A stretch of DNA of 53,495 nucleotides, filler included, from Jimgerdemannia flammicorona (Eukaryota), in the NCBI GenBank assembly GCA_003990765.1. It is 2 parts of 2 records of this genome, joined end to end, with 100 filler letters (N's around TTAATTAATTAA, not from the genome) between each part and the next. Parts side by side here need not be neighbours in the genome. Positions count along the whole stretch, not along the records: positions 1 to 26,706 come from RBNJ01000704.1; 1 more part is not named here. The stretch is one strand, 5' to 3'. Of this stretch, positions 4,233 to 26,706 are shown in pieces. The notes under the pieces were generated by a model, which was not told the DNA's origin, did no database searches, and was given only the letters and a program-made list of their open reading frames with translations. The position numbers and the translations under genes were made by a program. Within the stretch, counting starts at the first letter, position 1. Each line of letters begins with the position of its first letter.

Positions 4233-7200
4233 CCACTAACAACCTGACCCCAAACCAGAAGCAGGTCCAGCTACAGCCCTACCTGAACCCAAAACCAATA
4301 GTGAACTAGAACTTGACTTTGAATTAAGTCTATCTGAAATCAGATATATAACTGATTCTGTCTACTTTAATACTGAGCAAACCCAATTACACAGAGACCA
4401 AACCAAAGAGAAAGAGTGAATTTGATCCCAGATATACTACTGAAGGAGATGCACCTCTATTAGGACAGAACATACCTATATAGCAACAAACTGCTATCTA
4501 TTGAGCCCTTACTCCTGACCTATAACTACTACTCTAGCAACTTATACAAACTCAAAGAATACTCTCACACACTGCTCCAGTACCTCAAGTAGTACTGGTA
4601 ACACCACTACCAATAGTCCAAGCACCTCCAGTAAACAATATAGCAAACCAACAGATTCTAGACCTTACAGCCCAGATAGCAATAATAGCAGCAACCATTA
4701 CTGCCTTAGTTGAACAGATCTGACCAACCAAAAATCTGAGCCTACCTACCTTCAATGGTACTATACAAGAAGTCCAAAGCTTTATTAGTGTAGTTGATAC
4801 CAACTTTGAAGCCAATCAATGGACCAATGAGTAAGTTGCTGACTACCTTTTGACAAACAATCAAGACTACACTCTGGAACAACTCTTTACTACTACTACA
4901 GCCTATGTCCATTGAGTTGTTACATTCTTCTGAGGATCTGCCAAAGAATAGTGGTGAACCCTTTCTGAAAAATTCCTCACATAGGATACCTGACCTGCAG
5001 TAGTTGCCCAGAATGCAGCAAACAATGCTCCAGGATATAGAGCCCATCCTGCAGCCCCTGGACTCAAACAACTCATGATTGCCCAATACTACAGTGAAAC
5101 CATGATCACTGAATCTCAAGTCAAACTCTGTAACCTCAAATTCAATATACATAGCAAGGAGGAATTTGAAACCTTCTATATAAAACTTGAGTCACTCCTG
5201 AACACTGTTGGCCTAGGATATATGGCCAATGATGAAGCACAAAATAGTATAAGAGCAGATCATTTATTTGATATATTATCTGAATAGCTTACTAGAAAAA
5301 TCTGAGAACAAGGCCACCCAGTTGGTTGTGATTACCAACAATGGTACTTGGTAAGAATCAAGACTATGATCAAGCAAATCTTAACAGCTGGATCAATTCT
5401 GCCCTGAAGACAATTCAACAACAAAGAAAAGACTTAGACCAAGAAAGAAGAATCCAAGCATGAAGTATCTCAAGCTCCCTCTACATCCACCTTATGGATA
5501 CTCAGAAATCATGAACCCACCCAGCTGAGTACCTTTAAGAAACTCACTGAAGGGGAAAGAAATGAACTTTGAAGAAGTGGAGCATACTTTTATTACTGAA
5601 AGACAGGATATATAATCAGTACCTGCCCTAATCAAAAACCCCAAACAGCAACACAAGTAACTATTACTACTCTGTACCACCTCAATAACCTGACTACCAG
5701 AATACTGGATATTATCAAGTTAAGGCAAACTGCTAAGACCCCAACCAAAGAAAGTCCAAAGGCAGCTGGATATAACCTATATGTAGCCGAAGAAGCTACA
5801 GTTTTTAACTGAGAAATCAAACAAATCTACACAGAAATCAGCATACAAATCCCTGAAGGACATGTTGAAAGAATATATTATTACAGTAGCCTAGTATTGA
5901 AAGGACTCTCAGTAGAAGGAGGAGTCATTGATGAAGATTATACAGACAAAATTATTATTCTTATCAGAAACTACAGTTGGACACCATTTAAGATCTTCAT
6001 TGGTTTCTGTATTACTCAGATCCTATTTGAGAAAATTGAATCAACTCTAACAGTCAAGGAAGTCCCTGAACTACTGCCCACCATCTGATGATCTAAAGGA
6101 TTCAGCACATTAAATAAGGCTCCAGCCCAACATACCATGAACAAAGAAAAACAATTCTACAAGAAGATCAAAAATGGATATATACCAAGTGGCCAATGCC
6201 TCCATGGCATTGGAATGTACTCTTCTCAAATGATTGACAATTGCTTCTCTTATGTAAATAAATTGGCTTAAAGAATAATCAATAGAAGGAAAGCTCCTAT
6301 AACCAAAATCACTACCATTGGATCAGACAAACTGCTTACACTTCAAGCTTTTGTCAACTGAGCACCTGTCAAGATTATAATAGACAGCAGTGTCTCAGGC
6401 AACTTCATCAACAAAGAAACAGCCAACAGACTCAAGGTCCTGACATCTCTAGTATAACAAACTCAAGCAGTTGCTATAGCTGATGGAACCTCACATGTTA
6501 TTAGCAAGGAAGTCCACAATCTACCCTTCCAAATTGGTAACTACCAAGTATATATTACCCTCTAGATTGTACCACTTCCTGATAATAAAATCATCCTTGG
6601 GACTCTATGGTTAAAATAAGAGAACCCTATGATCGATTAGGTAAACCATTTTCTGATCATCAAGAAAGGATGCCACAACTTCAAACTATAAGGCAAAAGG
6701 GACCCACTTAGTTCTAGTGACTCTGGACCAAAGATCACCCATATCAATAAGCTACAGCTTAAGAAATTGGCCAAGAAATACTCTTTTTTTGCCATTCCCA
6801 TCTGTCTATCTAAAGGAGAACCCGAGAATGCTGAAGAAGACTTTTCCAAAGTTAACAGCCATATCAGACCCCTACTTCAGAAATTCTGAGATATATTCCC
6901 AAAGAAACTTCCAAAAGGCCTATCACCTAAATGAGCAGTAAACCATACCATCAAGACCATCCCAGATGTCAAATCAGCCTTTAAGTCAATCTACCACATG
7001 TCTCTAAGAGAAATTGATACACTCAAGAAAGAAATTGATGAGCTCCTGGAATAAGGATTCATCAGACTCAGTGTATTACTCATGATGCACCAGTCCTCTT
7101 TATTGTCAAGAAAGGAGAAGATCTGTAAATATGCATTTATTACCATGACCTCAATGAACAAACCATCAAGAACTATTGCCCACTACCCAGAATCGATGAA

Positions 7201-9351
7201 ATATTTGATAGACTTACCAACCTATAATTTATGAGCTCTTTTGACTTGTGAAATGGTTATTGGCAAATTGCTATAAAAGAAGAAGATATCTATAAGATAG
7301 TCTTCCAAACCCGCTATAGACACTTTGAGTTCTTGATTATGCCTTTTGGCTTAACTAATGCTCCTACAACCTTCTAGACACTAATGAATATCATCCTGCA
7401 CCCATATATAGACAAATTTGTTATTATCTATATTGATGACATCCTAGTCTTCAGCAAAACCCTAGAGAAACTTGAACACCTTGAACTAGTACTACTGAAA
7501 CTCTGAGAAAACTGACTCTTTGCAAAACTCAGCAAGTGTGAATTTCTCCTGAAAGAAATTCAATTCCTTAGACACATTGTCATACCAAATGGAATTAAAG
7601 TAGATCCTAGCAAAATCTCTGCAATCAAGGATTGGCCCAGACCCAAGAAGCTGAAAGACTTCTAGTTATTCCTGGGATTAGCAAACTATTATAGGTGATT
7701 TGTTGTCAACTTTGCTAAAATCACTACTGCCCTCACCCAAATGACCAAGTACAATAAGAAATAAGAATAACCCTGGACCATAAAATAAGAGAAAGACTTC
7801 AACAATCTTGTAAATTAGGGACCTAAATAAGATATAGTCTTTCAAGCACTAAAAGATGCCTTAATAACCACTCCAGTACTTCAAGTGGCAAATCCTGCCC
7901 TACCATATGAAGTTATTACTGATGCCTCTGACCTAGCTCTTAGAGCAGTACTCATGCAAGAAGGACACCCTGTGGCCTATCATTCTCATAAGTTCAATGA
8001 TACTGAAATCAACTATGCAACCCATGAAAAGGAAATACTAGCCATTGTAGACACTCTGATCAAATGGTGACCATACTTAGAAGGAGCATACTTCACTGTA
8101 TTGACTGACCATAAGTCATTAGTCAACATCAAGACCTAGGCTACTCTTTCCTGAAAGTAAGCCAGATGGATGAAAGTTCTTACCAACTTTGACTATGAAA
8201 TCCAGTATCAGCCTGATAAGGAAAATATTGTTGCTAATGCAATCTCCAGACCACCAATTGAAGAAGTTATCCAAACTCTCATCCTGATTACCAACACTAT
8301 TATAAAACAAATTATTGCAGCATGTGCTAATGATAAGGAAGCCCAAGCACTCTGAGAAGTCCTGAGCAGTGACAATACCAACAAGCATACCCAGTATAAC
8401 CAATACCAACTGAAGGACAATACTATCTACTATAAGAACAGATTATATGTTCCAAACAACTGAGACCTCTGAAGAACTATCCTATTCAAATGTTATGATG
8501 CCCCTACAGCTGGATATTTAGAATTTGACAAATACTATGAAGTTATTTTCCAAAACTTCTATTGGCCTCATATGGCAGATCAGCTCAAGACCTACATTAC
8601 TTCCTATAATGCCTGCCAATAGAACAAGTCCTCAATACTAGCAAAACCTGGACTACTCCACCCCATCTCAGTACCATCTGCTAATTGGGAATAAATCTCT
8701 ATGAACTTCATTGTATAACTACCCTGAACCAAGAACAGAAAAGATGCAATTGTTGTCTTTGTGGACTATCTTAGCAAGTAAGCCCACTTTGTACTAACTA
8801 CTACTACTGTAACAGTACTAGACATAGCTACACTCTTGTTTGACAATATTTTATGCTATCATGGTCTTCCTAAGATCATTATTAATAATTAAGACCCAAA
8901 ATTCATCAGCTATTTTTGGAAAGCCCTCTATGCATACCTTGGAATGAAACTTGCACTATCCACAGCCTTTCACTCCGAAACTGATGGCCAAACTGAAAGA
9001 ATGAACCAAACTCTAGAACAAATGCTAAGGAACTATATTTCCTATAGACAAGATGATTGGCATGAATATCTCACCACAGTCAAGTTTGCCTATAACAACA
9101 GCAAGCAAGCCTCTCTTGGAATGACTCCATTCTTTACCAATATAGGACAAAACCCAAACATCTCTCTGACACTTATCTAGACCACTGATGAACCTTCTAC
9201 AGTCAAAGCTATTGAAGAATTCTTGCTCTGAATGTACAATCTAAGCCAGATTGCAATCGAGAATTTGTTACAAGCTCAAGAACAACAGTCACAATATTTT
9301 AACTAGCACTGTCAAGAGAAAACTTTTGACATTGGAGAAAAAATTCTACTG
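4233..9351 (+). mobile_element. Degenerate Ty3/Gypsy internal region, copy 1 (partial gag, dUTPase, PR, RT, RNase H, integrase)
   Basis: Colinear with 14187-19312 at an offset of ~9960. Motifs: [54 protein letters not shown]. Many premature stops. Confidence 0.95.
5705..6112 (+). pseudogene. Retroelement dUTPase domain, copy 1
   Basis: AAGYNLY, GGVIDEDYTDKI, ITQIL and SKGFST are degenerate versions of the trimeric dUTPase motifs. Confidence 0.85.
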
Positions 9352-9988
9352 GGTATTTGCAGGATATAGTCATTAGAGTATAAGAAGGTTCTGTCTGTAG
9401 TTTGAATATACTCAATATACTTATGGTTAAGTTCTTATACTATATTATTGATTTAGCCATAGGATAGAGTAGTAACTATTTTAGCAGTAGTAACTTAGAG
9501 GTAGAGAATAAAGGTGCTATACTCATAAAAGAGTTCTCAGTATTTGTAGGTGATGAGTTTCTGGTATTGAGACATCTGAGTAATATATATATCATAGTAG
9601 TATTCAACCATATCTTCCAGAAGATGGCCAATCTGATAATAGCTTAAGATTTGTCTAATTCAGTAGACTTTGTTGAATATATTCAAAGTATTCTATCAGA
9701 CTTCTATAAAGTAGAGGGGTGTTAGATTATAGATATTCATAGGGGGTAGAGGAGGTATATCTTGGTTGACAATGATATTCTAAATATCAGTATGAATGTG
9801 ATTGTAGATCTCAGTGATCATAGTTGTGTATTTGTTCAAGAGTTGTAATTATTTGTTTAGTTTGTTGTAGTTCTCTATTTCAATATATCTGAGTACTCAG
9901 TATATATATATTTAGTCCTAATTGGTAAGGTTCCATTTGTATAAATCTTATATTCTATGACTTTGAGTTGACTCAGCTTTATACTCTA
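9352..9988 (-). mobile_element. Inverted type-A LTR fragment; continues at 25349-25451 after the nested insertions
   Basis: Reverse complement of the LTR ORF region. The sequence ...TCAGCTTTATACTCTA resumes as CTCTGTGACTTTGGTTTAACTCAGC at 25349, matching the uninterrupted copy at 1-232. Confidence 0.85.
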
Positions 9989-10664
9989 TATAAGTGCACA
10001 ACCTCCAAGCTACTGAAATCACACATCACCCTCTGAATAAGCCACCGAAATCACACGCAACCTCCAAATAAATCTAGAAATCATCTGCTCAATTATGAAG
10101 CTAAGTCAAACCAAAGTTACAGCATACAAAGCTGAGTCAACCTGAAGTCACAGAACACAAGATTGACATAAACAAAATCTTACCAATCAGGACTGAATGT
10201 ATATATACTGAGCAGCAAGACACATTGAAACAGAGAACCAAAACAAACAATAATCACACATACAAACATGACCACCAAGATCTACAACTGTATCTGTACT
10301 GATATTTGGAATACTATTGTCAACCAAGCCACACCACCTCTGCCACTCATGAATATCCATAGCCTAGCACCTCTCTACTTTGTAGAAGCCTGATGGAATG
10401 CCCTGAATGTAAGTGCACAACCTCCAAGCTACTGAAATCACATGTCACCCTCTGAACAAGCTACCGAAATCACACACGACCTCCGAACAAATCTGGAAAT
10501 CATCTGCTTGATCACAAAGCTGAGTCAATATGAAGTCACAGAACATAAGATTCACATAAATGGAATCTTACCAATCAGGATCAAATGCATATATACCGAG
10601 CCCTGAGATGCATCAAAACAGAGAACCAAAACAAACAACAACCATAACTTCCAAATATACAAAT

Positions 10665-11762
10665 ATGATCACTGAGATCTACAATTGCATCTGCACTGAC
10701 ATTTGGAATGTCATTGTCAACCAAGCTACACCCTCTCTGCCCCTCATGAATATTCATAGCCTAGCACCCCTCTACTTTATGGAATCCTGATGGAATGCCC
10801 TGAACATGCTTAACAAGGCCCACTGAATTGGACAAATCTCAAGCTACTACCAGATTGGCCGCCTCCTAGAAGACATGATCAAACACTATCATGATACAGA
10901 TATGACCCAGATGTCTCAACATCAGAAGCTCATCACCCGCAAACACCAAGAACTCTTCTTCAAGTATAGCACTGTTATTTCTCACCTCTGAGTTACTACA
11001 GCTAAAATGTTTGCTATTCTGTCTTATGGCCAAATCGATGACATGATACAAGAACTCAACCACAAGTACCTCGAGTATGTTAAAACCACAGATAGAACCT
11101 TCCCACACTCCAACAATCATATCCTGCAAATGCCCCAAGTTGGATATACCATGAAGGACATCTATGATATAATCCACTTCGATGAAGATGAAGTAGAAGA
11201 CAATGATCTCTCTGATACTGACATGACCTCAAGCCAAGGATCTCTACCAACCCTGATCATACTGCCAACCTTGCTGATGAACTTATAACAGTTTATAACC
11301 ACCTACAAGACCTATTAGGACAATGACCATTGGCATAAATACTAACCCATGTTCACTCCCGATTACTTCAACTACAATGAAGAGACTGGAGAACACAACC
11401 TGTACCTTCAGACAACCCTTGACATTGAACCAATCACTTCACCACCCAAGTATGAGTGACATGAACCACAGCCACCAGCTTACTACAATCCTGTAACTCA
11501 TAGTATTGTAACCTATGGAAGGTACATAGACAGTGAATCTGAGAAAAGTGAAGATGATGCATCCCTCCTTTACCTGCCAATACCTTACCTAGTATATGAG
11601 ACTGATGATGTCATTTTGTGGAACAGAGACAAAGTCTCAATATATTACTATCTCAGTGAACAAGGAGAAGTAATCCGCAAACCACTCTTCCTAGATAACT
11701 ACTTCATCAGAGATGATACAATTAATAATGATATCATCGAAGACTACCCAGACAGTGCCTAA
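10665..11762 (+). pseudogene. LTR-encoded ORF A (365 codons, unknown function), 5'-LTR copy
   Basis: One frame from MITEIYNCI to IIEDYPDSA*. Most internal stops are CGA/CAA/TGG in another LTR copy. The length is 1098 nt in three copies. Confidence 0.75.
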
Positions 11763-11950
11763 ACCATAAATAGCTTAGTAGTCATAGTATAGTTAGATTA
11801 TTCTTATACAATATAACTGTGAACTGACTCAGCAGTCAGATGATCTCTTGACATGTCAGATCACTCTTGTACTATGTAACTGCATTCCAACTCAGCAAGG
11901 TACTTAGTGCTACATCCATATTCAGCATAGTCCAGATAGCTCCTCACCAG

Positions 11951-11956
11951 TATAAA
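11951..11956 (+). promoter_or_regulatory. Putative LTR TATA box
   Basis: AGTATAAA followed by a C-rich run, seen at the equivalent position in the LTR copies (~21478, ~23380, ~25926, and ~24325 on the minus strand). Confidence 0.5.
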
Positions 11957-12444
11957 CACCCCCTGCCCCAGACCTCAGAATCTCAGACTCGAACACACAA
12001 GAACATTCCTGAACACTTCCCCACAATACTCCTTTACACAACTACTCCTAGTATAGCAATATCATGAATAACAAATAAACTTATATATGTAATAACCCAC
12101 AAACCACTCTTAAGTAAATCTGCTCCCTGTTAGGTCCCACTCCTAACTCCGTCATGAAATTTCCTAATTGGGTATTATCTGCAGTGATACACCAATTCAA
12201 CTAAGCTGGTCTTAGTTTCTTGAACTTTCTGAAATACAGAAAATTCTGAATATTCAGAACTAGTCTGAAAAAGGACTTTGGTTGAGACATCAACCTGATC
12301 TTGAAATCAATAAGCATAGAGGACATACTCCATATGAAATTGATCTTGATCTTAAGAAAATGGTCTTCCAGAATATTCAGAACTTCCAGAAAACCCTTCC
12401 AGAACTATGTAAATGTTACCCTAAAAAGCAACTCTCTTACAACT

Positions 12445-12456
12445 TGGTAGCAGTGG
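12445..12456 (+). other. Primer-binding site, probably initiator tRNA-Met
   Basis: TGGTAGCAGTGG lies 3 nt after the 5' LTR. TGGTAGC is complementary to the ...GCTACCA 3' end of eukaryotic tRNAi-Met. Confidence 0.75.
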
Positions 12457-12773
12457 TTTACAATCTAATTCCACTTCAAGACGCTTCCTCACCCCACTAC
12501 AAACCCCTCTGAGAATTCTTACAAGTTGGTATAAAGCCCAACCTCTGAACTGGAATTTACCCTGAACTATCTGACAATCTGGAGAGAATTAAACCTGACA
12601 TACAAGGACAATTTGACCTCTACACCTGCAATAAGTGGGACAAACTTTACTTAAAGAAAGAAGTACTCCAATTAAACTAGCAAATAGGTGAAACCCTATT
12701 CACCAAACTTCTTGCTCTACACCTAGTAAGTCAAGATGAAGAAGGTCTTATAGAAGCCTTCTTTACTCTTCTC

Positions 12774-13952
12774 TTTTTTTTTTTGTTTAACGGACTCTAT
12801 GTCCCATGGATTTTTATTGGAAGGGAACCTAGAATATAGGCCAAAACTCTCCCCCACCATCCATTAAGCACTGCCCCCCCATTAATCTAGGCTAGCTATT
12901 GTCCAGCAGCTCAACCATATTAGGCACAGCAGGGCAAAGTAGCCTACACCTCATTCTGTGCACCATGCTCTCCCTATCACCAAGGGAAATCCAGCCATAT
13001 GCCAACAACCAAAAGTATACACCTGAGAACCCAATGTATGTATAAGGCTACACCCGAGCCAAATAGAATAGCCCCTACCACTCTAAAGAGAATGACAGGC
13101 AAAGAAAAAACCCTCATCAAAGTACAACACAGTGGGTAGGGCCTAGTTCTCCCAGTTGAGGTGAGTAAAGGACTTATACATGAGGTGGGAGGAGACCCCC
13201 AATACCCCACTACTCAAGCCTGCAGGTCTTAATCACATTGCCATGTCAGCTCCTGGTTCCAGTTGAGTGTAGCCAAGATGCCTGAAATGGGTAGCCTCAG
13301 GCCCCCCAACCCCCCCCGACAACCGGGGCCCAACCCCATAAATTGCCAAAAGAAGCCGAGAGTGACACCTACCACCTAACCACACCGTACCAATCAAAAG
13401 GCCCCACTGAAGCAGTACCTGCCCCAGTCCCAATGATTGCCCCCAGCCTGGCACCCTACTGGTTCACTGTTATCACCCTTCCTCCTATCTGTAATGGCCA
13501 TCTCTCCTCTCATCCCAACAACACCTAAGAAGCAGTCACCTATGCCAGAACTGTGCTCACCAGGAAGCTCGCCAAAGCCAGAGGGCTCCACCACAGGTAC
13601 TGAGGACCTGCAGGTAACCTACACTAAGCACTTGATGCCCAAGGTTGGCTGACTCTCTATATAGCCCAAGATACACCAGGACACCACCTTATTGGTGACA
13701 GCAAAAGGAAGAAGGCACTGCACCAAAATGGATGCACTCCAGATACAGCTGAAGGCACCAGAAACTGTGAATAAGTGGAGAAGACACCGATCCAGCACTG
13801 ATAAAGGGGCAACTCATCACCATTGTCTTCCTCCTGCCAAGCCCATGCAGGCACAGCAAACTAACCCAAGATAGAGGGGGTAATAATAGGGGAAAGGGGA
13901 CTCAGAAGATCACCTACCAAACCTTGTGACCAGTAAGGTAGCGGAGAAAGGG
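12774..13952 (-). mobile_element. 5'-truncated non-LTR retrotransposon (LINE-like) inserted in gag
   Basis: Perfect 18-bp TSD GCCTTCTTTACTCTTCTC (12756-12773 and 13953-13970). T12 at 12774-12785 is a poly(A) tail on the minus strand. The gag frame is restored when the insert is removed. Confidence 0.85.
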
Positions 13953-15664
13953 GCCTTCTTTACTCTTCTCAACAAGAGTTTTGTCAGCTCCACAAATCTG
14001 AGTGACCTAGGACAACCAGCAGCAGTCTTTCTAGCCTTAGTCCCTCATGAAGCCCAAGTCTCTATAGCCAAGTGGCTCAACTCTACTGTCTTTCACCATA
14101 CCAGAACCAAGACTGTACTATACTACCGATTCCAAAACAGCAAGGTCTACCATATTCTTAAAGAAGAAGCAAGAGAAACTCTTCATCAACTACCTGACCC
14201 CAAACCTGAAGCAGGCCCTACTACAGCCCTACCTGAATCTGAAATCAATACTGAACTAGAATTTGACTTCAAATTAAGTCCATCTGAAATCAGATATACA
14301 ACTAATTCCATCTACTTTGATACTGAGCAAACCCAATTACATAGAGACCAAACTGAAGAGGAGGAGGAGTATCTCAGTAAATTTGATCCCAGATACACCA
14401 CTGAAGGAGAAGCACCTCCATCAGGACAGAATACACCTATACAGCAACAAACAGCTATCTATCAAGCCCTTACTCCAGACCCACAATAACTACTCCAGCA
14501 ACTTACACAGACCCAAATAACACCCTCACACTCTACACAGTACCTCAAGTAGTACCAGTAACACCACTACCAGCAGTCCAACCACCTCCAGTAAACAACA
14601 TGGTAAACCAACAGATTCTAGACCTCACAGCCCAGATAGCCAAAATGGCAGCAACCATTACTGCCTTAGCCAAACAGATCTGACCTACCAAAAATCTGAG
14701 CCTACCTACCTTCAATGATACTGCATAAGAAGTCCAAAGCTTCATTAGTGTAGTTGACACCAACTTCAAAGCCAATCAATAGACCAATGAGCGAGTTGCT
14801 GACCGCATTCTGATAAACAATCAAGACCACACTCTGGAACAACTCTTTGCTACTACTATAGCCTATGTCTGCCAAGTTGTTACATTCTTCCGAGGACCCA
14901 CTGAAGAATAGTGGTAAACCCTTCCTGAAAAACTCCTCACATGGGACACCTGACCTGCAGTGGTTGCTCAGAATGTAGCAAATAATATTCTAGGATATGG
15001 AGCTCATCCTGCAGCCCCTGGACTCAAACAACTCATGATTGCTCAATACTACAGTGAAACCATGATTGCTGAATCTTGAGTAATACTCTGTAACCTCAAA
15101 TTCGATATATATGGCAAAGAAGAATTCAAAACCTTCTGTACAAAACTTGAGTCACTCCTGAACACTATTGACCTAGGATATATTGCCAATGATAAAGCAC
15201 AAAATGGTACAAGAGCAGACCATTTATTTGATGCACTACCTAAATGGCTTACTAGAAAAATCTGAGAACAAGACTGCCCAGTTGGTTGTGACTACCAACA
15301 ATGATGCCTGGCAAGAATCAAGACTATGGTTAAGTGAATCCTAACAGCTGGACCAATTCTGCCCTGAAGACAATTCAACAATAAGGAAAAGACTTGGACC
15401 AAGAAAGAAGAACTCAAGCATGAAGCATCCTGAGCTCCCTCTACATCCACCTCATGGATACCTGGAAATCATGAATCTACTCAGCTGAGTATCTTCAAGA
15501 AACTCACTGAAGGAGAAAGGAATGAACTTCAAAGAAGTGGAGCATACTTCTATTGCCAAAAGACAGGACATATGGCCAGTACCTGCCCTAACTGAAAACC
15601 CCAAACAGCAATACGAGCAACTGTTACCACTCTGTACCACCTCAACAACCTGACCACCAGAACA

Positions 15665-16072
15665 TTAGACTTTGTCAAGTTAAGACAAACTGCCAAGGCC
15701 CCAACCAAAGAAAGTCAAAAAGCAGCTGGATATGACCTGTATGCAGTCGAAGAAGCTACAGTTTCCAACCAAGAAGTCAAGCAAGTCTACACAGGAATCA
15801 GTATCCAAATTCCTGAAGGATATGTTGGAAGAATATGCTGTCACAGTAGCCTAGCATTGAAAGGACTCTCAGTAGAAGGAGGAGTCATTGATGAAGATTA
15901 CACAGGCGAAATTATTGTCCTCATCCAAAACTACAGTTGGACACTCTTCAAGATCTCTATTGGATTCTGTATTGCCCAGATACTATTTGAAAAAATCAAG
16001 TCAATGCTGACAGTCAAGGAAGTCTCTGAACTACTACCTACCATCCAAGGATCCAAAGGATTTGGCTCATCA
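15665..16072 (+). pseudogene. Retroelement dUTPase domain, copy 2
   Basis: All five motifs are recognisable: AAGYDLY, (R>H)SSLA, GGVIDEDYTGEI, (R>C)IAQIL, (R>Q)GSKGFGSS. In frame after the Gag zinc knuckle. Confidence 0.92.
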
Positions 16073-19000
16073 AACAAGGCTCCAGCCCAATCTAGTATGA
16101 ACAAAGAAGAACAATTCTATAAGAAAATCGAAGATAGATATATATCAAGTAGCTGATGCCCCTGTGGTATTGGAATGTACTCTTCCCAAATAATCAATGA
16201 TTGCTTCTCTTGTGTCAATGAACTGGCCCAAGAAGAACCAACAGAAGGAAAACTCCTACAACTAAAATTACCACTATTGGATCGGACAAACTGCTTATAC
16301 TCAAAGCTTTTATCAACCAAGCACCTGTCAAGATTATGATAGACAGTAGTGCCTCAGGCAACTTCATCAATGAAGAAACAGCCAATAGGCTCAAGGTCTT
16401 CACCTCTCTGGTACAACAAACTCAAGTATTTGCAACAGCTGATGGAACCTCTCATGTTATTAGCAAGGAAGTCTGCAATCTACCCTTCTGAATTGGTAAC
16501 TACTGAGTATATGTTACTCTCCAAATTGTACCACTTCCTGACAATGAAATCATCCTTGGGACTCCATGATTAAAATAAGAGAACCCTATGATCGATTGGG
16601 TAAATCATTCTCTGACCATTAAGAAAGGATGTCACAACTTCAAACTGCAAGGTGAAAAGGACCCACTCAACTCTAGTGACTCTAGACCAAAGATCACCCA
16701 CATCAACAAGCTACAACTCAAGAAATTAGCCAAGAAATATCCTCTCTTTGCTATCTCTATCCATCCATCTAAAGGAGAACCCGAGAACTCTGAAGAAGAC
16801 TTTTTCAAAGTTGACAGTCATATCAGACTACTACTCCAGAAATTCCGAGACATATTCCTAAAGAAGCTCCTAAAAGGCCTACCTCCCAAATGAGCAGTAG
16901 ACCATGCCATCAAGACTATCCCAGATGCCAAACTAGCCTTCAAGTCAATCTACTATATGTCTCCAAGAGAAATTGATGCACTTAAGAAGGAAATCGATAA
17001 ACTCCTAGAACAAGAATTCATCAGACCCAGTGTATCACCCTATGGTGCACCAGTCCTCTTTATTGTCAAGAAAGGAGGAGACCTGCGAATGTGCATTGAT
17101 TACTATGACCTCAATGAACAGACCATCAAGAACTATTGCCCACTACTGAGGATCGATGAAATATTTGATAGACTTACCAACCCACAATTCATGAGCTCTT
17201 TTGACCTACGAAATGGTTACTGGCAAATTACCATAAAAGAAGAAGACATCTACAAGACAGCCTTCCAAACCCACTATGGACACTTTGAGTTTCTGGTTAT
17301 GCCTTTTGACTTAACCAATGCTCCTACAACCTTCCAGACACTGATGAATACTATCCTGCACCCATACCTGAACAAATTTATTATTGTCTACATTGATGAC
17401 ATCCTAGTCTTCAGCAAAACCCTGGAGGAACATCTTGAACACCTCGAACTAGTACTACTGAAACTCCAAGAAAACTGACTCTTTGCAAAACTCAGCAAGT
17501 GCAAATTTCTCCTGAAAGAAATTCAATTCCTTAGACACCTTGTTACTCCAAATAGAATCAAAGTGGATTCCAGCAAAATCTCCACAATCAAGGATTGGCC
17601 CAGACCCAAGAAGCTAAAAGACCTCCAATCATTCCTGGGATTAGCAAACTATTACAGGCGATTTGTTGCCAACTTTGCCAAAATCACTATGGCCCTCACC
17701 CAAATGACCAAGCATAGTAAGAAAGAAGAACAACCCTGGACCACAAAACAAGAGAAAGACTTCAACAATCTTGTAAACTGGGGACCCAAACAAGATATCA
17801 CCTTTCAAGCACTGAAGGATGCCTTCCAGTACTTCAAGCAGCAAATCCTGCCCTACCATATGAAGTCACTACTGATGCCTCTGACCTAGCCCTTAGAGCA
17901 GTACTCATGCAAGAAGGACACCCTATGGCCTATCATTCCCATAAGTTCAATGATGCTGAAATTAACTACACAACTCATGAGAAGGAAATGTTAGCCATCG
18001 TAGACACTCTGATCAAATGGTGACCATACCTAGAAGGAGCACACTTCACTATATTAACTGACTACAAGTCATTAGTCAACATCAAGAGCCAGGCTACCCT
18101 TTCTCGAAAGCAAGTCAGATGGATGAAAGTCCTCACCAACTTTGACTATGAAATCCAGTATTGCCCTGATAAGGAAAATATTATTGCTGATACAATCTCC
18201 AGACCACTAATTAAAGAAGTTATCCAAACCCTCACCTTGGTTACAAACTCTATTATGGAACAAATTATCACAGCATATGCTGATGATAAGGAAGCTCAAG
18301 TACTCCTAGAAATTCTAAATAGTGACAATGCTGACAAGCACACCCAGTACCATCAATACCAACTCAAGGACAATGCTATCTACTACAAGGACAGACTGTA
18401 TGTTCCAAATAACTGAGATCTCTGAAGGACTATCCTATTTGAATGTCATGATGTCCCTATAGCTGGACATTTAGAATTTGATAAATGTTATGAAGTTATC
18501 TTCTGAAACTTCTATTGGCCCTGCATGGCAGATCAGCTCAAGACCTATATTACTTCCTGTGATGCCTGCCAATGGAACAAGTTCTCAACCCTGGAAAAAC
18601 CTGGTCTACTCCACCTTATCCTAGTATCATCTGCAAATTGGGAACAAATCTCTATGGACTTCATTGTACAACTACCCTGAACCAAGAACAGGAAAGATGC
18701 AATTGTTGTCTTTGTGGACTATCTCAGCAAACAAGCTCACTTTATACCAACCACCACCACTGCAATAGCACCAGAGATAGCCACACTCTTGTTTGATAAC
18801 ATCTTCCACTATTATAGTCTTCCTAAGATTATTGTTAGTGACCGAGATCCAAAATTCACCAGCCATTTTTGGAAAGCCCTCCATACATACCTTGGAACAA
18901 AACTTGTACTATCTACAGCCTTTCACCCTGAAACTGATGGCCAAACCAAAAGAATGAACCAAACTCTGGAACAAATACTAAGGAACTATGTTTTCTATAG

Positions 19001-19556
19001 ACAAGATAATTGGTATGAATACCTCACTACAGTCGAGTTTACCTATAATAACAGCAAGCAAGCCTCTCTTGGAATAACCCCATTCTTCACCAACACTGAA
19101 TAAAACCCAAACACCTCTTTGACACTCATCTGAACTACTAAAGAACCCTCTATAGTTGAAGCTGTTAAAGAATTCTTACTCCGAATATGTAATCTAAGTC
19201 AGATTGCAATTGAGAATTTATCGCAAGCTCAAGAACAACAGTCACAGTATATTAACCAACACTACCAAGAAGAAATCTTTGATATTGGAGAAAAAGTTCT
19301 ACTAGACATCCAAGGATACCAAGTTGACAACCTGAAGCACAGACCATCTATGAAGCTAAACAGTAAGTTCATTGGACCATTCAAAGTCATCACACAAGTC
19401 TCTCCCACTTTCTACAAATTGGTACTACCAGATACTATTAAAGTCCACCCAGTCTTCAATGTCCAACGTCTCAAGTGATATAATGAAAACAATGATGAGC
19501 TATTTCCAAACCAGACTACCAAACCACCTGCACCTGTCATAATTAATAACCAAGAA

Positions 19557-19706
19557 GAATATGAAGTTGAACAAATCCTCAATAAATGTGGCAACAAGAA
19601 GCACTCTGAGTACCTTGTCAAATAGAAAAGTTACCCAATCTATGATATAATATGGGAACCCAAGACCAATCTCCCAAATGCTACTGACTTAGTTTAGGAA
19701 TATAAT
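19557..19706 (+). other. Integrase C-terminal chromodomain
   Basis: EYEVEQILNK...EYLVK*KSYPIYDIIWEPKTNLPNA matches the chromodomain consensus YEVE.IL...YLVKWKGY....TWEP..NL. Confidence 0.88.
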
Positions 19707-19920
19707 TCCTTGAACAACTGAAATCTGAATACTCCAACACCTATTAGAACATACTATATATTACTCTCCTGAATATTATAATTATCACAAACCTAATCAA
19801 GAACTCAGCAAAACAAGACAAGAATACTGACTCTCTAGAAAAATAGCAAACTGAAAGTAAGCCTATTCTCCCCATACTACTGAGCAAAATTAGAAGGCCC
19901 CAACAAGGATATTGAAAGCT

Positions 19921-19933
19921 AAGAAGGGAAGAG
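19921..19933 (+). other. Polypurine tract
   Basis: AAGAAGGGAAGAG immediately before the 3' LTR. Confidence 0.85.
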
Positions 19934-19934
19934 T

Positions 19935-22228
19935 TATAAGTACACAACCTCCAAGCCACTGAAATCACACATCACCCTCTGAATAAGCCACCGAAATCAC
20001 ATGTGACCTCTAAACAAATCTGGAAATCATCTGCTTGATCACAAAGCTGAGTCAATATGAAGTCATGGAACACAAGATTTACACAAACGGAATCTTACCA
20101 ATCAGGATCAAATGCATATATACCAAGCCCCAAGATGCATCGAAACAGAGAACCAAAACAAACAACAACCACAACTTCCAAACATACAAATATGATTACT
20201 GAGATCTATAACTGCATCCACACTGACATTTGGAATACTATTGTCAACCAAGCCACACCCCCTCTGCCCCTCATGAATATCCATAGCCTAGCACCCCTCT
20301 ACTTCATGGAATCCTGATGGAATGCCCTGAATATGCTTAATAAGGCCCACTGAATTGGACAAATCTCAAGCTACTACCAGATTGGCCATCTCCTGGAAGA
20401 CATGATCGAACACCATCATGATACAGATATGACCCAGATGTCTCAACACCAGAAGCTCATTGCCTGCAAACACCAAGAACTCTTCTTTGAGTATAGCACT
20501 ATTATTCTCCGCCTCCGAGTTACTACAGCCGAAATGGTTGCTACCCTGTCTTATGGCCAAATCAATGACATGATACAAGAACTCAACCACAAGTACCTCA
20601 AGTATATTGAAATCACAGACAGAACCTTCCCACATCCCAATGATCATATTCTGCAAAAACTCCAAGTCAGATATGCCATGAAGGACATCTATGATATAAT
20701 CCACTTCGATGAAGATGAAGCAGAAGATAATGATCCCTCTGATACTGACATGACCTCAAGCCAAGGATCTCTACCAACTCTGATCATACTGCCAACCTTG
20801 CCGATGAACTTATAACAGTTTATAACCACCTACAAGACCTATTGGGACAATGATCATTAGTATAAATACCAACCTGCATTCACTCCTGATTACTTCAACT
20901 ATAATGAAGAGACCGGAGAACACAATCTGTACCTTCAGACAACCCTTGACATTGAACCAATCACTCCACCACCCAAGTATGAGCGATATGAACCACAGCC
21001 ACCAGCTTACTACAATCCTACAACTTATAGTGCTGTAACCTATAGAAGGTATATAGACAGTGAATCTGAGGAAAGCAAAGATGATGCATCCCTCCTTCAC
21101 CTGCCAACATCTTACCCAGCATACGAGACTGATGATGTCATCTTGTGGGATGGAGATGAAGTTCCAATATATTACTACCTTAGTGAATAAGGAGAAGTAA
21201 TCCATAAACTACTTTTTCTAGATGACTACTTTATCAGAGATAATGCAATCGATGGTGATGTCATCGAAGACTACCCAGACAGTACCTAAACCATAAATAG
21301 CTTAGTAGTCATAGTATAGTTAGATTAGCCTTATATAACATAACTGTGAACTGACTCAGTAGTCAGATGATCTCTTAATATATCAGATTACTCTTGTACT
21401 ACATGACTGCATTCTGACTCAACAAGGTACTTAGTGCTATATCCATATTCAGCATAGTCCAGATAGCCCCTCACTAGTATAAATACCCCCTGCCCCAGAC
21501 CTCAGAATCTCAGACTTGAATACACAAGAATATTCCTGAACACTTCTCCACAATACTCCTTCATACAACTACTCCTAGTATAGCAATATCATGAATAGCA
21601 AATAAATCTATCCCTTTGTCTATAGATAAGATCATCTTTTAAAATCATTTAGCAGACAAATTAAAGTTTGAAAAAAATGATTTTTTAAAACATTGTTTTT
21701 CTGTCTCAATTTGTTTAAAAACAAAAAAAAAAATTTTTATAAAATTTTTACCAAAGGTAGAATTATTATATAAAAAATTATTGGTAAATTTTTTTTTAAA
21801 AGCTATTATGATTTTAAAAGTTATAAACTTTTAAAATCTTGCTTCTAAATATAGGTGCAAAACAGTCAAAGAGATATAATAACCCACAAACCACTCTTAA
21901 GTAAATCCACTTCCTATTAGGTTCCACTCCTAACCCCATCACAAAATTTCCTAATTGGGTATTGTCTGCAGTGATACACCAATTCAACTAAGCTGGTCTT
22001 AGTTTCTTGAACTTTCTGAAATACAGAAAATCCTGAACATCCAGAACTAGTCTGAAAAAGGACTTTGGTTGAGACATCAACCTAATCTTGAAATCAATAA
22101 GCATAAAGGACATACTCTATATGAAATTGATCTTGACCTTAAGAAAATGATCTTCCAGAATATTTAGAACTTCCAGAAAACCCTTCTAGAACTATGTAAT
22201 GGTTATCCTAAAAAGCAACCCTCTTATA
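19935..22228 (+). repeat. 3' LTR (type A) containing ORF A (20192-21289) and a MITE
   Basis: Direct repeat of 10408-12441 plus a ~264-bp insertion. Termini TATAAG...CTTATA. Confidence 0.95.
21611..21874. mobile_element. AT-rich MITE-like insertion
   Basis: Absent from the other LTR copies. The ends TATCCCTTTGTCTAT and ACAGTCAAAGAGATA form a 12/15 inverted repeat. A 2-bp TA or AT duplication is present. Confidence 0.75.
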
Positions 22229-23844
22229 CTGAATATGCTTAATAAGGCCCACCAGATCAGACAAATCTCAAGCTACTACTAGATTGGTTGCCTCCTGGAA
22301 GATATGGTTGAACACTACCATGATACAGATATTATTCAGATGTCTCAATACCAGAAGCTTATTGCCCGCAAATACAGAGAACTCTTCTACAAGTACAGTA
22401 CCTTTATTCTCTGCCTCTGAGTTACTACTGCCAAAATGGTTACTACTCTGTCCTATAGCCAAATTGATAACATGATACAAGAACTCAACCACAAGTATCT
22501 TGAGTATATTAAAACTACAGACAGAACCTTCCCACACCCTGACAACTATATTTTACAAATGTCTCAAGTTGGTTATGCTATAAAGGACATCTATGATATA
22601 ATCCACTTCGACAAAGATGAAGCAGAAGATAATGATCCCTCTAATGCCAATATGACCTCAAGCCAAGGATCCCTGCCAACCCTGATCACTCTGCCAATCT
22701 TGCCAATGAACTTACAACAGTTCATAACCACCTATAAGACTTATTGGGACAATGACCACTGGTATGAATACCAACCTACATTCACCCCCAATTACTTCAA
22801 CTATAATGAAGAGATTTGAGAACACAACCTGTACCTCCAGACAACTCTCGAGATCAAACTAACCACTTCACCATCTGAGTATGAGTGACATGAACCACAG
22901 CCACCAGCTTACTACAATCCTGCAACTTATAGTACTGTAACCTACAGAAGGTATGCAGACAGTGAATCTGATGAAAGCAAAGATGATGTACTCCTTTTTC
23001 GCTCACCAATACCTTATCCAGTATATGAGACAGATGATGCAATTCTGTGGGATGGAGATAAAGTCCCAATGTATTACTACCTCAGTGAATAAGGAGAAGT
23101 AATCTGTGAACCACTCTTCCTAGATGACTACTTCATCAGAGACGATGTCATCAATAGTGATATCATCAAAGACTACTCAGACAGTATCTAAATCATAAAT
23201 AGCTTAGCAGTCATAGTATAGTTAGATTAGCCTTATACGACATAACTGTGAACTGACTCAGCAATCAGATGATCTCTTGATATATCAGATCACACTTGTA
23301 CTACATAACTGTATTCCAACTCAGCAAGATACTTAGTGCTATATCCATATTTAGCATAGTCCAGATAGCCTCTCACTAATATAAATACCCTCTCCCCCAG
23401 ACCTCAGAATCTCAGACTCAAATATACAAGAACATTTCTAAACACTTCCCCACAATATCCCTTCACACAACTACTCCTAGTATAGCAATATTATGAATAG
23501 CGAATAAACCTATTTAATAATCCACAAACTACTCTTAAGTAAATCCACTCTCTATTAGGTCTCACTCCTAACTCTGTTATGAAATTTCCTAATTGGGTAT
23601 TGTCTGCAGCAATATGCTAATTCAACTAAGCTAGCCTTAGTTTCTTGAACTTCCTGAAATATGGAAAATCCTGAACATCCAGAACTAGTCCGAAAAGGGA
23701 CTTTGGTTGAGACATCAACCTGATCTTGAAATCAATAAGTGTAGAGAACATACTCTATATGAAATTGATCTTGACCATAAGAAAACAGTCTTTTAGAATA
23801 TCCAGAACTTCCAAAAAACCCTTCCAGAACTACATAACAGTTAC

Positions 23845-25321
23845 TGTAAGAGGGTTGCTTTTTAGGATAACCATTACATAGTTCTGGAAAGGTTTTCTGG
23901 ATATTCTAGATGTTCTGGAAGACCGTTTTCTTATGGTCAAGATCAATTTCATATGGAGTACATCCTCTATGCTTATTGATTTCAAGATTGGGTTGACATC
24001 TCAACCAAAGTTCTTTTTTGGACTAGTTCTGAATGTTCAGGATTTTCTGTATTTCAGGAAGTTCAAGAAACTAAGACCAGCTTAGTTGAATTGGTATATC
24101 GCTGCAGACAATACCCAATTAGGAAATTTCGTGATGGGGTTAGGAGTAGGACCTAACAGGGAGCGGATTTACTTAAGAGTGGTTTGTGGGTTATAGAATA
24201 GGTTTATTTACTATTCATGATATTGCTATACTAGGAGTATTTGTGTGAAGGGATATTGTGGAGAAGTATTCAGAAATGTTCTTGTGTGTTCGAGTCTGTT
24301 TAAGTCTGGGGGAGGGGGTATTTATACTAGTGAGGGGCTATCTGGACTATGCTGAATATGGATGTAGCACTAAGTACCTTGCTGAATTGGAATGCAGTTA
24401 CGTAGTACAAGTGTGATCTGATATGTCAAGAGATCATCTGACTGCTGAGTCAGTTCACAGTCACATCATATAAGGCTAATCTAACTATACTATGACTGCT
24501 AAGCTATTTATAGGTTTAGGCACTGTCTGGTTAGTCTTTGATGACATCACTATTGATGACATCATCACTGGCAAAGTCTGAGCAGTTTTCTGACTTCTGA
24601 CATCATCAGTTTTCAAGATGTCGTCACTTCTATCTTTTGTAAGATTAAGACTGTTCTTGGTAGTGGTGGTTGTACAAGGATAACCAGTCTTGGTTCTCTT
24701 TTTTTTTTGGTTTGCTGGCGCATTTGCGAGGACTGGCCATTCTCGTCTAGGGTGAGGGCTCCCAATGTCGCAGCTGGGGGTTCGAACCTCTCGGAAATGA
24801 TATTTTCTATAATCCGAGGCAATTTCTAGTAGTAATATCTGTCACATGGATGGCTTGAGATTGGTTTTGACATTGTCGGCTTTCTTGAGTTTAGATGAAG
24901 TGTCCGTCACTCTTCAATGGAGGTGACACAGATAAAGCGAACGGAGTTGTTCAAATACATTTTGCTTCTGCTAAGTAATGAGGTCTTGTATAGTCACAGT
25001 ATATCTTGGTCTTGAGTTGATAAGTGCAGTTCGTGAACCTTTTGATGGGTGAGATAGGGTTCTTCTTGTCTTGATTTGAGTTTAGTACTTTCGGTTTCTT
25101 TTGTAATAGTACGGTATACTAAACTAGCTATAGCAGTTCAGAGTCAGTCTTATGGTTGTAGTACTTCTTCTAGTATTCTTGTATCTTAGTAGTAAGTTCT
25201 TGTGCTTGCTGGCATATTTGTGTAACCAGATGATCTCTTGTTTTGTAGTCTCGCATGTGGTTTCTGAATTAGTTCTGATGATGCTATGTGATTTTGGTGG
25301 CTTGGAGGTTGTGCGCTTACA
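23845..25321 (-). mobile_element. Type-B solo LTR (1477 bp), inverted
   Basis: Intact TGTAAG...CTTACA termini and TSD GTTAC (23840-23844 and 25322-25326). Shares its first ~40 bp and last ~720 bp with type A; the middle is unrelated. Confidence 0.93.
24516..25215 (-). pseudogene. LTR-encoded ORF B (~232 codons, unknown function)
   Basis: Reads MPASTRTYY*DTRILEEVLQP...DFASDDVINSDVIKD*PDSA*. It has C->T-type stops and one 1-nt slip in the homopolymer at ~24700. The copy at ~4103 shows CAA at the first stop. Confidence 0.6.
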
Positions 25322-25451: not shown

Positions 25452-26437
25452 ACTAGTATACTATAACCCTATAATATATAGTACCATAATCTATTAAAGA
25501 TATATTAATAGCAAATCTGAAAGTAAAGACAATACACCTCTTCTCTACTCACCAATACCCTATCTAGCTTTTAAGATAGATAATAACATTCTGTAGGATA
25601 GTAATATAGTTCTAACCTACTACTATATAAATAAACAGAGATGTTATCCAAAAACTACTCTTTTTAGGTGACTACTTCTTTAGAGATAATATCATCAATA
25701 GTAATCTTATTGAAGAATATTCAAATAGTATCTAAATCTATAGATAGTCTAGTGGTTATTAGTATAATTAGATTAGTCTTATACTATATAATTGTATACT
25801 GACTCATCAGTCAGATAATCTCTTGATATATTAGTTCTCACTTATATTATATGACTGTATTCTAACTCATCAAAACACCAAGTACTATATCTATATTTAG
25901 TATAGTCTAGATAATATCTTATTAGTATAAATATCTACTCTCTTAGATCTCAGAAACTTAGATACAAATAAACTCAAACAGACAGAAATATAGATAAAGA
26001 ATCTAGAAGAACACTTTTTTATATAAATATTTCTTCATATACTATGCCTAGTATAGTAATATTATAAATAGCAAATAAATCTATTTAATAACTCATAAAT
26101 TACTCTTAAGTAAATCTGTACTCTATTAGGTCTCACTCTTAACCAGATTCCAAAATTTTCTAATTAAGTATTATCTGCAGTAATATACTAATTCAACTAA
26201 ACTGGTCTTAGTTTCTCAAACTTTCTAAAATACAGAAAATTCTGAATATTCAGAATAAGTCTGAAAAGAGACTTTAGTTGAGACATTAATCTGATTTTGA
26301 AATCAATAAGTATAGTAGATATACTCTATATAAAATTAATCTAGACCTTAAGAAAACAGTCTTTTAGAATATTTAGAACTTCTAGAAAATTTCTCCAGAA
26401 CTATATAATGATACTCTAATAAAGTAATCCTCTTATA
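25452..26437 (+). mobile_element. Oldest, most AT-eroded type-A LTR 3' half
   Basis: Colinear with ~11475-12441 and ends in CTCTTATA. CpG has essentially disappeared and TpA is abundant. Confidence 0.85.
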
Positions 26438-26706
26438 TCTAAATAAGATAGATATAAAACTATCAGTATTTTATAAATATATCTCTGATAAATTAATCAT
26501 TATATTCTATGAAGATTTTGAGCAATATAGTGCTATAAAAACTCTAATCATATAATAATAAGTAGCTTTCATATCTTTTAGCCTTTGAGATCTAGCAAAA
26601 GTAGTATTTATAATAGTAAATAATACTGAGAATAATGATAATATAACTCTATTAGTATAAAAGACTTAGCTGTAAACCAACTACTATATATAGTACGCTT
26701 AATAAG

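Follow-up and report, generated by a model that had tools for sequence, protein, structure and literature searches.

A probable 365-codon gene inside the long terminal repeat of a dUTPase-bearing chromovirus from Jimgerdemannia flammicorona

The long terminal repeat (LTR) of a dUTPase-bearing chromovirus from Jimgerdemannia flammicorona very probably contains a genuine gene of 365 codons, which was intact in its ancestors, was killed by RIP-like mutation in the DNA analysed here and may have been expressed from an LTR with two promoters. Judged from sequence data, the LTR-borne gene is real and belongs to an orphan family; its copies in the window are dead, and intact relatives exist elsewhere. 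The window is the whole analysed stretch of DNA, 53,495 nucleotides in length with filler included (NCBI GenBank assembly GCA_003990765.1), of which positions 1 to 26,706 come from record RBNJ01000704.1. Apart from this element, such an arrangement has mainly been described in a small number of retroviruses, and LTRs are treated as non-coding regulatory DNA and masked by annotation pipelines. A gene in this position would mean that elements of the Metaviridae can house accessory genes where only few retroviruses were known to do so. Being LTR-borne, it doubles with each insertion and outlasts the formation of solo LTRs, and it raises the question of what an LTR retrotransposon gains from an extra acidic protein in a RIP-proficient host.

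Results and Discussion

Structure of the element and its repeat nest

Between 3 and 28 kb, the window consists of an AT-enriched repeat nest with a GC content of 0.27-0.43 in most 1-kb bins, while the region from 28 to 53 kb is genic and GC-rich and contains an exon of Slu7 (a splicing factor) and a WD40 gene. Self-BLAST and multiple alignment of the window revealed seven copies or fragments of one repeat of ~2 kb, designated A1 to A7. Positions 10408-22228 constitute a complete Ty3/gypsy chromovirus that is nested in a third LTR, A3. Its two direct LTRs were delimited by self-BLAST and alignment and by reading the junctions. The 5' LTR, A1, extends over 2034 nt (10408..12441, + strand) and the 3' LTR, A2, over 19935..22228 (+ strand), the latter with an additional AT-rich insertion of ~262 nt at ~21611-21873. 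Both start with TGTAAG and end with CTCTTACA, thus having TG..CA ends, and they are 90% identical to each other. At the junctions, a 5-bp target-site duplication, CTGAA, was read at 10403..10407 on the left and at 22229-22233 on the right. A PBS-like TGGTAGCAGTGG is found on the + strand at 12445..12456, 3 nt past the 5' LTR, and the polypurine tract AGAAGGGAAGAG (19922..19933, +) lies directly before the 3' LTR.

The internal region (12442..19934, +) has a length of ~7.5 kb and is riddled with stops, which were translated as X for the Pfam domain search. All domains lie on the + strand in the order gag, dUTPase, PR, RT, RNase H, INT, SH3_Tf2-1 and a C-terminal chromodomain. The dUTPase (~15692-16075) is followed by the aspartyl protease PR (~16282-16627, E 1.7e-07), RT (RVT_1, ~17062-17533, E 1.2e-27) and RNase H (RT_RNaseH, ~17823-18143, E 9.4e-29). 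Between RNase H and SH3_Tf2-1 stands the integrase, with matches to Integrase_H2C2 (E 5.2e-14) and to rve (E 7e-05), the latter reaching 23.5 bits and being under Pfam's cut-off of 32.6; SH3_Tf2-1 itself (E 1.2e-14) comes after the integrase, and the chromodomain (Chromo, E 4.7e-08) is located at ~19560-19706. Upstream of the dUTPase, a gag-like stretch ends in a putative, damaged CCHC knuckle at ~15548-15592, where the zf-CCHC match (E 0.011) is below the Pfam cut-off and the first Cys reads Tyr, as expected of a G>A change. With target-site duplication, PBS, polypurine tract and the order from gag to chromodomain in place, the repeats can be accepted as the LTRs of a chromovirus, as an earlier note on this DNA had proposed.

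The host LTR, A3, is interrupted by the element. Its first part (9988..10407, +; self-BLAST and alignment) holds ORF codons 1-47 at 10268-10407, and in its second part (22229..23844, +) the ORF resumes at 22234-23191. The element was inserted inside codon 47 of the ORF of A3, and the third ORF copy is therefore split in the way the earlier note described. Among the further fragments, A4 (23845..24570, inverted, - strand) spans the final 18 codons of the ORF together with its stop and the remaining LTR, and A6 (9351..9983, inverted, - strand) contains ORF codons 1-157, with no indel in the ORF part. A5 (25459..26445, +) is a diverged fragment of ~73% identity that covers the last ~93 ORF codons and shows one 3-nt and one 2-nt deletion, and A7, another inverted fragment, was placed at 1-232 by alignment.

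The ORF and its copies

The ORF occupies positions 258-1355 of the 2034 positions of the LTR on the sense strand, lies wholly within the LTR and occurs in both LTRs of the element, in the host LTR and in three further fragments. Copy 1 (10665..11762, +) comprises 365 codons plus TAA and contains seven internal stops, at 10788, 10824, 10989, 11286, 11316, 11343 and 11457. Copy 2 (20192..21289, +), with five internal stops (20315, 20351, 20813, 20858 and 21188), is 89.4% identical to copy 1 across exactly 1098 nt, and copy 3 (10268-10407 joined to 22234-23191, +) has six internal stops. Alignment thus confirmed a frame with a conserved ATG and stop and a length of exactly 1098 nt in three copies. 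There are zero gap columns across the ORF among A1, A2 and A3; outside the ORF, the same three LTRs differ by indels of 31, 10-19, 10, 15 and ~260 nt. Beyond its ends, the frame contains four stops in 150 nt upstream and 17 in 500 nt downstream, the stop-poor stretch being bounded exactly by ATG and TAA. The codon-aligned antisense frame is likewise stop-poor, with 10, 7 and 9 stops.

Decay of the window copies

RIP-like hypermutation of the C>T/G>A type has killed every ORF copy in the window. An element has identical LTRs at insertion, and the sister LTRs A1 and A2 now differ within the ORF by 114 transitions versus 2 transversions. Over the whole LTR, the differences between A1 and A2 amount to 63 C/T, 61 T/C, 34 G/A and 29 A/G, and the share of available sites that were mutated was 0.345 for CpA, 0.291 for CpG, 0.165 for CpC and 0.053 for CpT. 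The earlier note had regarded most internal stops as sense codons in another copy. The three full copies together have 18 internal stops, and 17 of these are each a single C>T or G>A change away from a sense codon in another copy or homologue, forming the pairs CGA/TGA, CAA/TAA, CAG/TAG and TGG/TAG. The exceptional stop, GGA>TGA in copy 3, is due to a G>T transversion. In copy 1, all seven stops can be traced through C>T/G>A changes to sense codons found in other copies or in P0002, a homologous predicted protein described below. The TGA at 10788 was correctly reported as common to all four copies covering this site, namely A1, A2, A3 and A6 (9351-9983), and the TGA at 10824 is present in A1, A2 and A6.

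Stop-free homologues

A search of 5.8 billion clustered proteins with the ORF uncovered one near-length match, P0001 (one of 366 candidates), and one shorter match, P0002 (one of 34 candidates). A profile search of all 1.84 billion representatives returned P0001 and P0002 only and no further homologue, and the masking of LTRs may account for the near absence of this protein family from databases (2/1.84 billion representatives). Both are predicted metagenome proteins in single-member clusters, encoded on contigs of 998 and 1180 nt, and a metagenome-contig search for loci related to P0001 or P0002 found none. Both correspond to the sense frame of the ORF, not to the antisense frame, and presumably reside in LTRs.

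P0002 comprises 128 aa, is stop-free and begins at the same Met as the ORF. It is identical to copy 2 in 104 of 128 positions, and the identity reaches 94-98% after correction of the window copies for C>T/G>A changes. At the position of TGA 10788 it has Arg, as it does at TGA 10824. The earlier note would have given up its reading if the consensus kept stops such as the TGA at 10788 in the youngest copies, and the Arg of a stop-free relative at this site removes that objection.

P0001 comprises 247 aa, is also stop-free and matches residues 115-364 (149/250 identical, E 1e-101), with only two gaps of two residues each and with the same C-terminus as the ORF. Indels other than multiples of three, which had been named as a sign against a gene, are thus missing both here and among the three full window copies, which align without any indel. 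The first residue of P0001 aligns to Met115, so that in its subfamily the N-terminal third may be missing or disrupted. After C>T/G>A correction, P0001 is only ~74% identical to the ORF and yet open over 247 codons, which means that a diverged relative kept the frame open; by a rough estimate, neutral drift at this divergence should have given several stops.

Evidence for coding and selection

As RIP makes transitions only, transversions mostly record divergence that preceded insertion. Among the five copies covering parts of the ORF, there are 39 transversion columns, which are distributed over the three codon positions as 12/6/21 (binomial p=0.0066), and 15 of the 39 are synonymous, where the full set of possible transversions would lead one to expect 14.1% (p=1.5e-4). 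A lack of codon-position bias would have spoken against a gene according to the earlier note; the transversions favour third positions and synonymous changes. For A6 alone, the third-position bias is absent (2/10 transversions), and the transversion density between A1 and A3 is not lower in the ORF (17/1098) than upstream (4/246) or downstream (7/653). We conclude that the ORF was intact in the ancestors of the window copies and was under purifying selection.

Small word shares were detected in nine public runs from six studies, none of which is recorded as RNA. Four of the runs were aligned to the LTR at a likeness of at least 80%, giving 2984, 576, 274 and 416 short contigs, whose differences from the LTR are mainly T>C, C>T, A>G and G>A. 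The contig indel tables list the best-supported events only, and eight of the ten small indels in them lie outside the ORF; the two inside are a +1/-1 pair located 5 nt apart in one contig. The sole joint that falls fully inside the ORF among the contigs skips 75 nt, equal to 25 codons. Contig depth and coverage gaps are uninformative, and the contig indel pattern agrees with a constraint on the frame.

Two other explanations of the frame have to be weighed against a genuine gene. It might be a stop-poor frame that arose by chance from the A/C-rich strand composition of the LTR, with no gene at all, and the strand is indeed poor in T and G and the codon-aligned antisense frame is poor in stops too. 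Composition of this kind almost never yields such a frame, however: when the sequences were shuffled with their dinucleotides preserved, the most open of the six frames was equally stop-poor in 1/2000 cases for copy 1 and in 0/2000 for copy 2, and the ORF frame has eight and six stops in copies 1 and 2 (terminal stop included) compared with 17-42 in the other two sense frames. These results, together with the two stop-free homologous predicted proteins and the codon-position and synonymous biases, refute an origin by chance, to which we attach next to no credence. A passenger ORF, captured or arisen de novo, useless to the element and conserved-looking because the family is young, would be in keeping with the absence of a known domain or fold, with a transversion conservation in the ORF no better than in the LTR flanks, and with an orphan family of two homologues. 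It is nonetheless improbable, since P0001 at ~74% corrected identity is still open for 247 codons, has whole-codon gaps and ends at the same place, and since synonymous and third-position transversions are in excess.

The predicted protein

Pfam gave zero matches for either ORF copy, in accordance with the earlier note, which had recognised no domain. A PDB profile search with the ORF reached a best E of 0.18 and revealed no relative, and in the ESM Atlas P0001 had a pLDDT of 0.39, no usable feature match and structure rows with TM <=0.30. The AlphaFold2 models, each based on a 4-row alignment, are of low confidence, with a pLDDT of 32.1 for P0001 and of 49.7 for P0002, which is near-neutral and was modelled as all-helical at that low confidence. 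P0001 has a pI of 4.05, with 46 Asp+Glu versus 10 Lys+Arg, and contains 23 Tyr and 24 Pro but lacks Cys; a hydrophobic segment is absent (maximum 19-aa hydropathy 0.97), as is a signal peptide. Variable acidic linkers separate conserved blocks such as QFITTY.TYW, FTPDYFNYNE.TGEHNLYLQTT, AYYNP and YFIRDD. The N-terminal third of the protein is neutral and probably helical, and the C-terminal two thirds are strongly acidic with a high content of Tyr and Pro.

A motif scan of P0001 and P0002 for late-domain, NLS, CCHC, LxxLL and glycosylation motifs found none. The idea of a late domain was dropped, as the PPAY of the window copies reads PLAY in P0001. A paralogue of gag was rejected as well, the hhalign probability of the ORF profile against gag being 0.5%, and a separate gag-like stretch with a putative knuckle (zf-CCHC E 0.011) is present in the element, so that the ORF product is not gag. 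From its predicted features, the product would be a soluble cytoplasmic or nuclear protein outside known families. Our best guess at its role, and a pure conjecture, is that it serves the element as an accessory regulator, for instance as an acidic protein of the activator type whose target would be the LTR or chromatin. Such a role is compatible with the acidic, aromatic-rich tail, and the anti-silencing or host-interaction role suggested by the earlier note is neither favoured nor disfavoured by the results, composition being the sole functional clue.

Promoter motifs and expression

Two sets of motifs frame the ORF. CCAAT (10571-10575) and TATATAC (10589-10595), both on the + strand 70-95 nt before the ATG, form a candidate ORF promoter, P1, and are followed by an A/C-rich leader and then by the ATG with A at -3. 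By motif scan, CCAAT was also detected in A2 and A3, and by alignment the P1 block is conserved in the five covering copies. Behind the TAA of the ORF, there are stops in all frames, then TATAAA (11951-11956, +), 189 nt beyond the stop codon, and AATAAA (12074-12079, +), a candidate genomic promoter, P2, and a candidate polyadenylation signal that would delimit a short R. The pair recurs at the same spacing of 123 nt in A2 (21478/21601) and A3 (23380/23503). Read as promoter and polyadenylation signal, these motifs suggest a U3 of ~1.58 kb, an R of ~0.1 kb and a U5 of ~0.34 kb. By the position of these motifs, the ORF, which lies upstream of TATAAA/AATAAA, would fall in U3, as the earlier note proposed, and a second CCAAT/TATA precedes the ATG. 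Both CCAAT and TATA are short motifs, and RIP generates TA-rich ones.

For the expression of the ORF, the model that we prefer, at a little under an even chance among the expression models, is an LTR that acts as a self-contained gene with two promoters. P1 would give rise to a monocistronic ORF mRNA of ~1.45 kb ending at the LTR's own AATAAA, and the genomic RNA would come from P2, which lies downstream of the ORF. Under this model, the ORF protein could be made from any LTR, whether 5', 3' or solo. On motif evidence, the CCAAT/TATA upstream of the ATG would allow expression independent of a spliced genomic RNA.

Retroviruses have established the use of spliced subgenomic RNAs for extra genes, and a mode like that of sag or nef is the main alternative to the two-promoter model. 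Genomic RNA would then start from P2 in the 5' LTR, and translation of the ORF in the 3' U3 would proceed from a subgenomic mRNA made by splicing. The ORF stands upstream of TATAAA/AATAAA and hence at the 3' end of any full-length RNA, and the leader offers a consensus fungal donor, GTAAGT, at 12726; the acceptor would have to lie just upstream of the ATG. A lone GTAAGT in 560 nt is weak evidence, though, this candidate donor has no identified acceptor, and the CCAAT/TATA right before the ATG provides a simpler route, so that we regard splicing, with its donor in the leader and its acceptor near the ATG, as somewhat unlikely. Alternatively, P1 could be the sole promoter, with a U3 of ~200 nt and the ORF in a very long R (or R-U5) as the first cistron of the genomic RNA. 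The CCAAT/TATA at LTR positions ~164-188 would indeed make a U3 of ordinary length, and the first AATAAA past the ORF does not come before 12074. Against this speaks that an upstream ORF of 365 codons would block the translation of gag and that the TATAAA-AATAAA spacing of 123 nt, kept in three copies, resembles a normal promoter plus R. To our knowledge, an R of ~1.45 kb is unprecedented, and we consider this arrangement very unlikely.

The preferred two-promoter model can be taken a step further by viewing the LTR as a portable, complete gene with promoter, ORF and terminator, whose product would be an acidic regulator of the element's second promoter or of the surrounding chromatin. This extension is unlikely in our judgement. 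If true, it would be the equivalent, in a fungal retrotransposon, of the transactivator genes that complex retroviruses carry, and solo LTRs would seed the genome with expressible copies after the internal part is lost.

Comparison with known systems

The literature on LTR ORFs, in the portions available to us, deals nearly entirely with MMTV sag. Like the ORF described here, sag is a whole sense ORF of similar size (~320-365 codons) inside the LTR and upstream of promoter elements, and each is consequently carried by the two LTRs of an element and by solo LTRs. MMTV is a vertebrate betaretrovirus, whereas the present gene is found in a fungal-type element of the Metaviridae. Sag is a type II membrane glycoprotein, in contrast to the ORF protein, which has no hydrophobic segment, no N-glycosylation motif and no Cys, and the Pfam and PDB searches matched nothing that would point to homology between the two. 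The ORF is a positional analogue of sag and not a member of its family.

HIV/SIV nef and the foamy-virus genes tas/bet resemble the ORF as accessory genes at the 3' end that reach into U3, but they merely overlap the LTR while the present ORF is fully inside it, and there is no homology. Foamy viruses express their accessory genes from a separate internal promoter, and these genes encode an activator with an acidic domain. They are the nearest analogy to the proposed two-promoter model, with the activator role being guessed here from composition alone.

Extra ORFs in plant Ty3/gypsy elements, in bdelloid rotifer elements and in some fungal chromoviruses are comparable in that genes that are unknown or captured accompany gag-pol. 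Those of the plant elements sit between the LTRs. The bdelloid rotifer ORF3 is described as a third ORF beside gag and pol (PMC5408684), and an 'add. ORF' of some fungal chromoviruses is mentioned in the legend of a figure, Fig. 3 (PMC2864245). The crapaud element of Podospora, with its variable U3, was considered as a precedent and rejected, its LTRs measuring 339-443 bp and the accessible part of its description containing no LTR ORF. Our full-text literature search, outside subscription journals and Repbase, turned up no fungal LTR retrotransposon for which a gene within the LTR had been reported.

Closest in domain content are PosPlaTy3 from Postia placenta, elements of Phanerochaete chrysosporium and Tmt1 from Tuber melanosporum, which are chromodomain Ty3/gypsy elements with a dUTPase in the polyprotein as well. 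A gene borne by the LTR is not mentioned for the dUTPase-bearing fungal chromoviruses in the sections available of their description, on which alone the comparison is based (PMC2864245). The presence of dUTPase in fungal chromoviruses has already been described in the same sections (PMC2864245), where the enzyme of PosPlaTy3-3 is placed at the N-terminus of Pol, ahead of PR, and the same placement is seen in the element from J. flammicorona.

Internal Region of the Chromovirus

The nested Ty3/gypsy chromovirus (10408-22228) carries a dUTPase domain at 15692-16075, placed between gag and the protease and recognised by Pfam with an E-value of 5e-31; such a domain is already on record for some fungal chromoviruses (PMC2864245). 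A further copy of the internal region lies at 4238-9350, showing 85.7% identity to 14188-19303. It is cut off at both its 5' and 3' ends, the latter adjoining the inverted LTR fragment at 9351-9983.

As this second copy aligns to 14188-19303 only, it offers no counterpart of the segment lying between the primer-binding site and gag (12700-14188). This stretch has a GC content of about 0.5 and contains a single stop-poor frame, and a Pfam search on both of its strands returned zero matches. It may represent a unique insertion, or captured sequence that was spared the C>T decay. The leader also displays the consensus fungal 5' splice-site hexamer GTAAGT at 12726-12731, 285 nt past the 5' LTR, which is its sole occurrence within 12442-13000.

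Variation of the LTR

The 3' LTR (19935-22228), and only this one, harbours a very AT-rich insertion of about 262 nt (21611-21873) directly 3' of the candidate polyadenylation signal AATAAA. Inverted repeats are present inside the insertion, while inspection of it did not clearly reveal terminal repeats or a target duplication.

Four public sequencing runs (X1, X2, X7, and X8) yielded short contigs, in numbers from the hundreds into the thousands, that aligned on the 5' LTR, within the interval 10408-12700, with 80-99% likeness. This means that the LTR family or its close relatives are plentiful in those samples and show a high degree of variation there.

Surrounding Sequence

A local direct duplication occupies 1004-1453, where 1004-1252 and 1194-1453 match at 81%. 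The GC-rich half of the window contains exons of two host genes, one encoding WD40 repeats (33523-34095) and the other the pre-mRNA splicing factor Slu7 (36105-37163).
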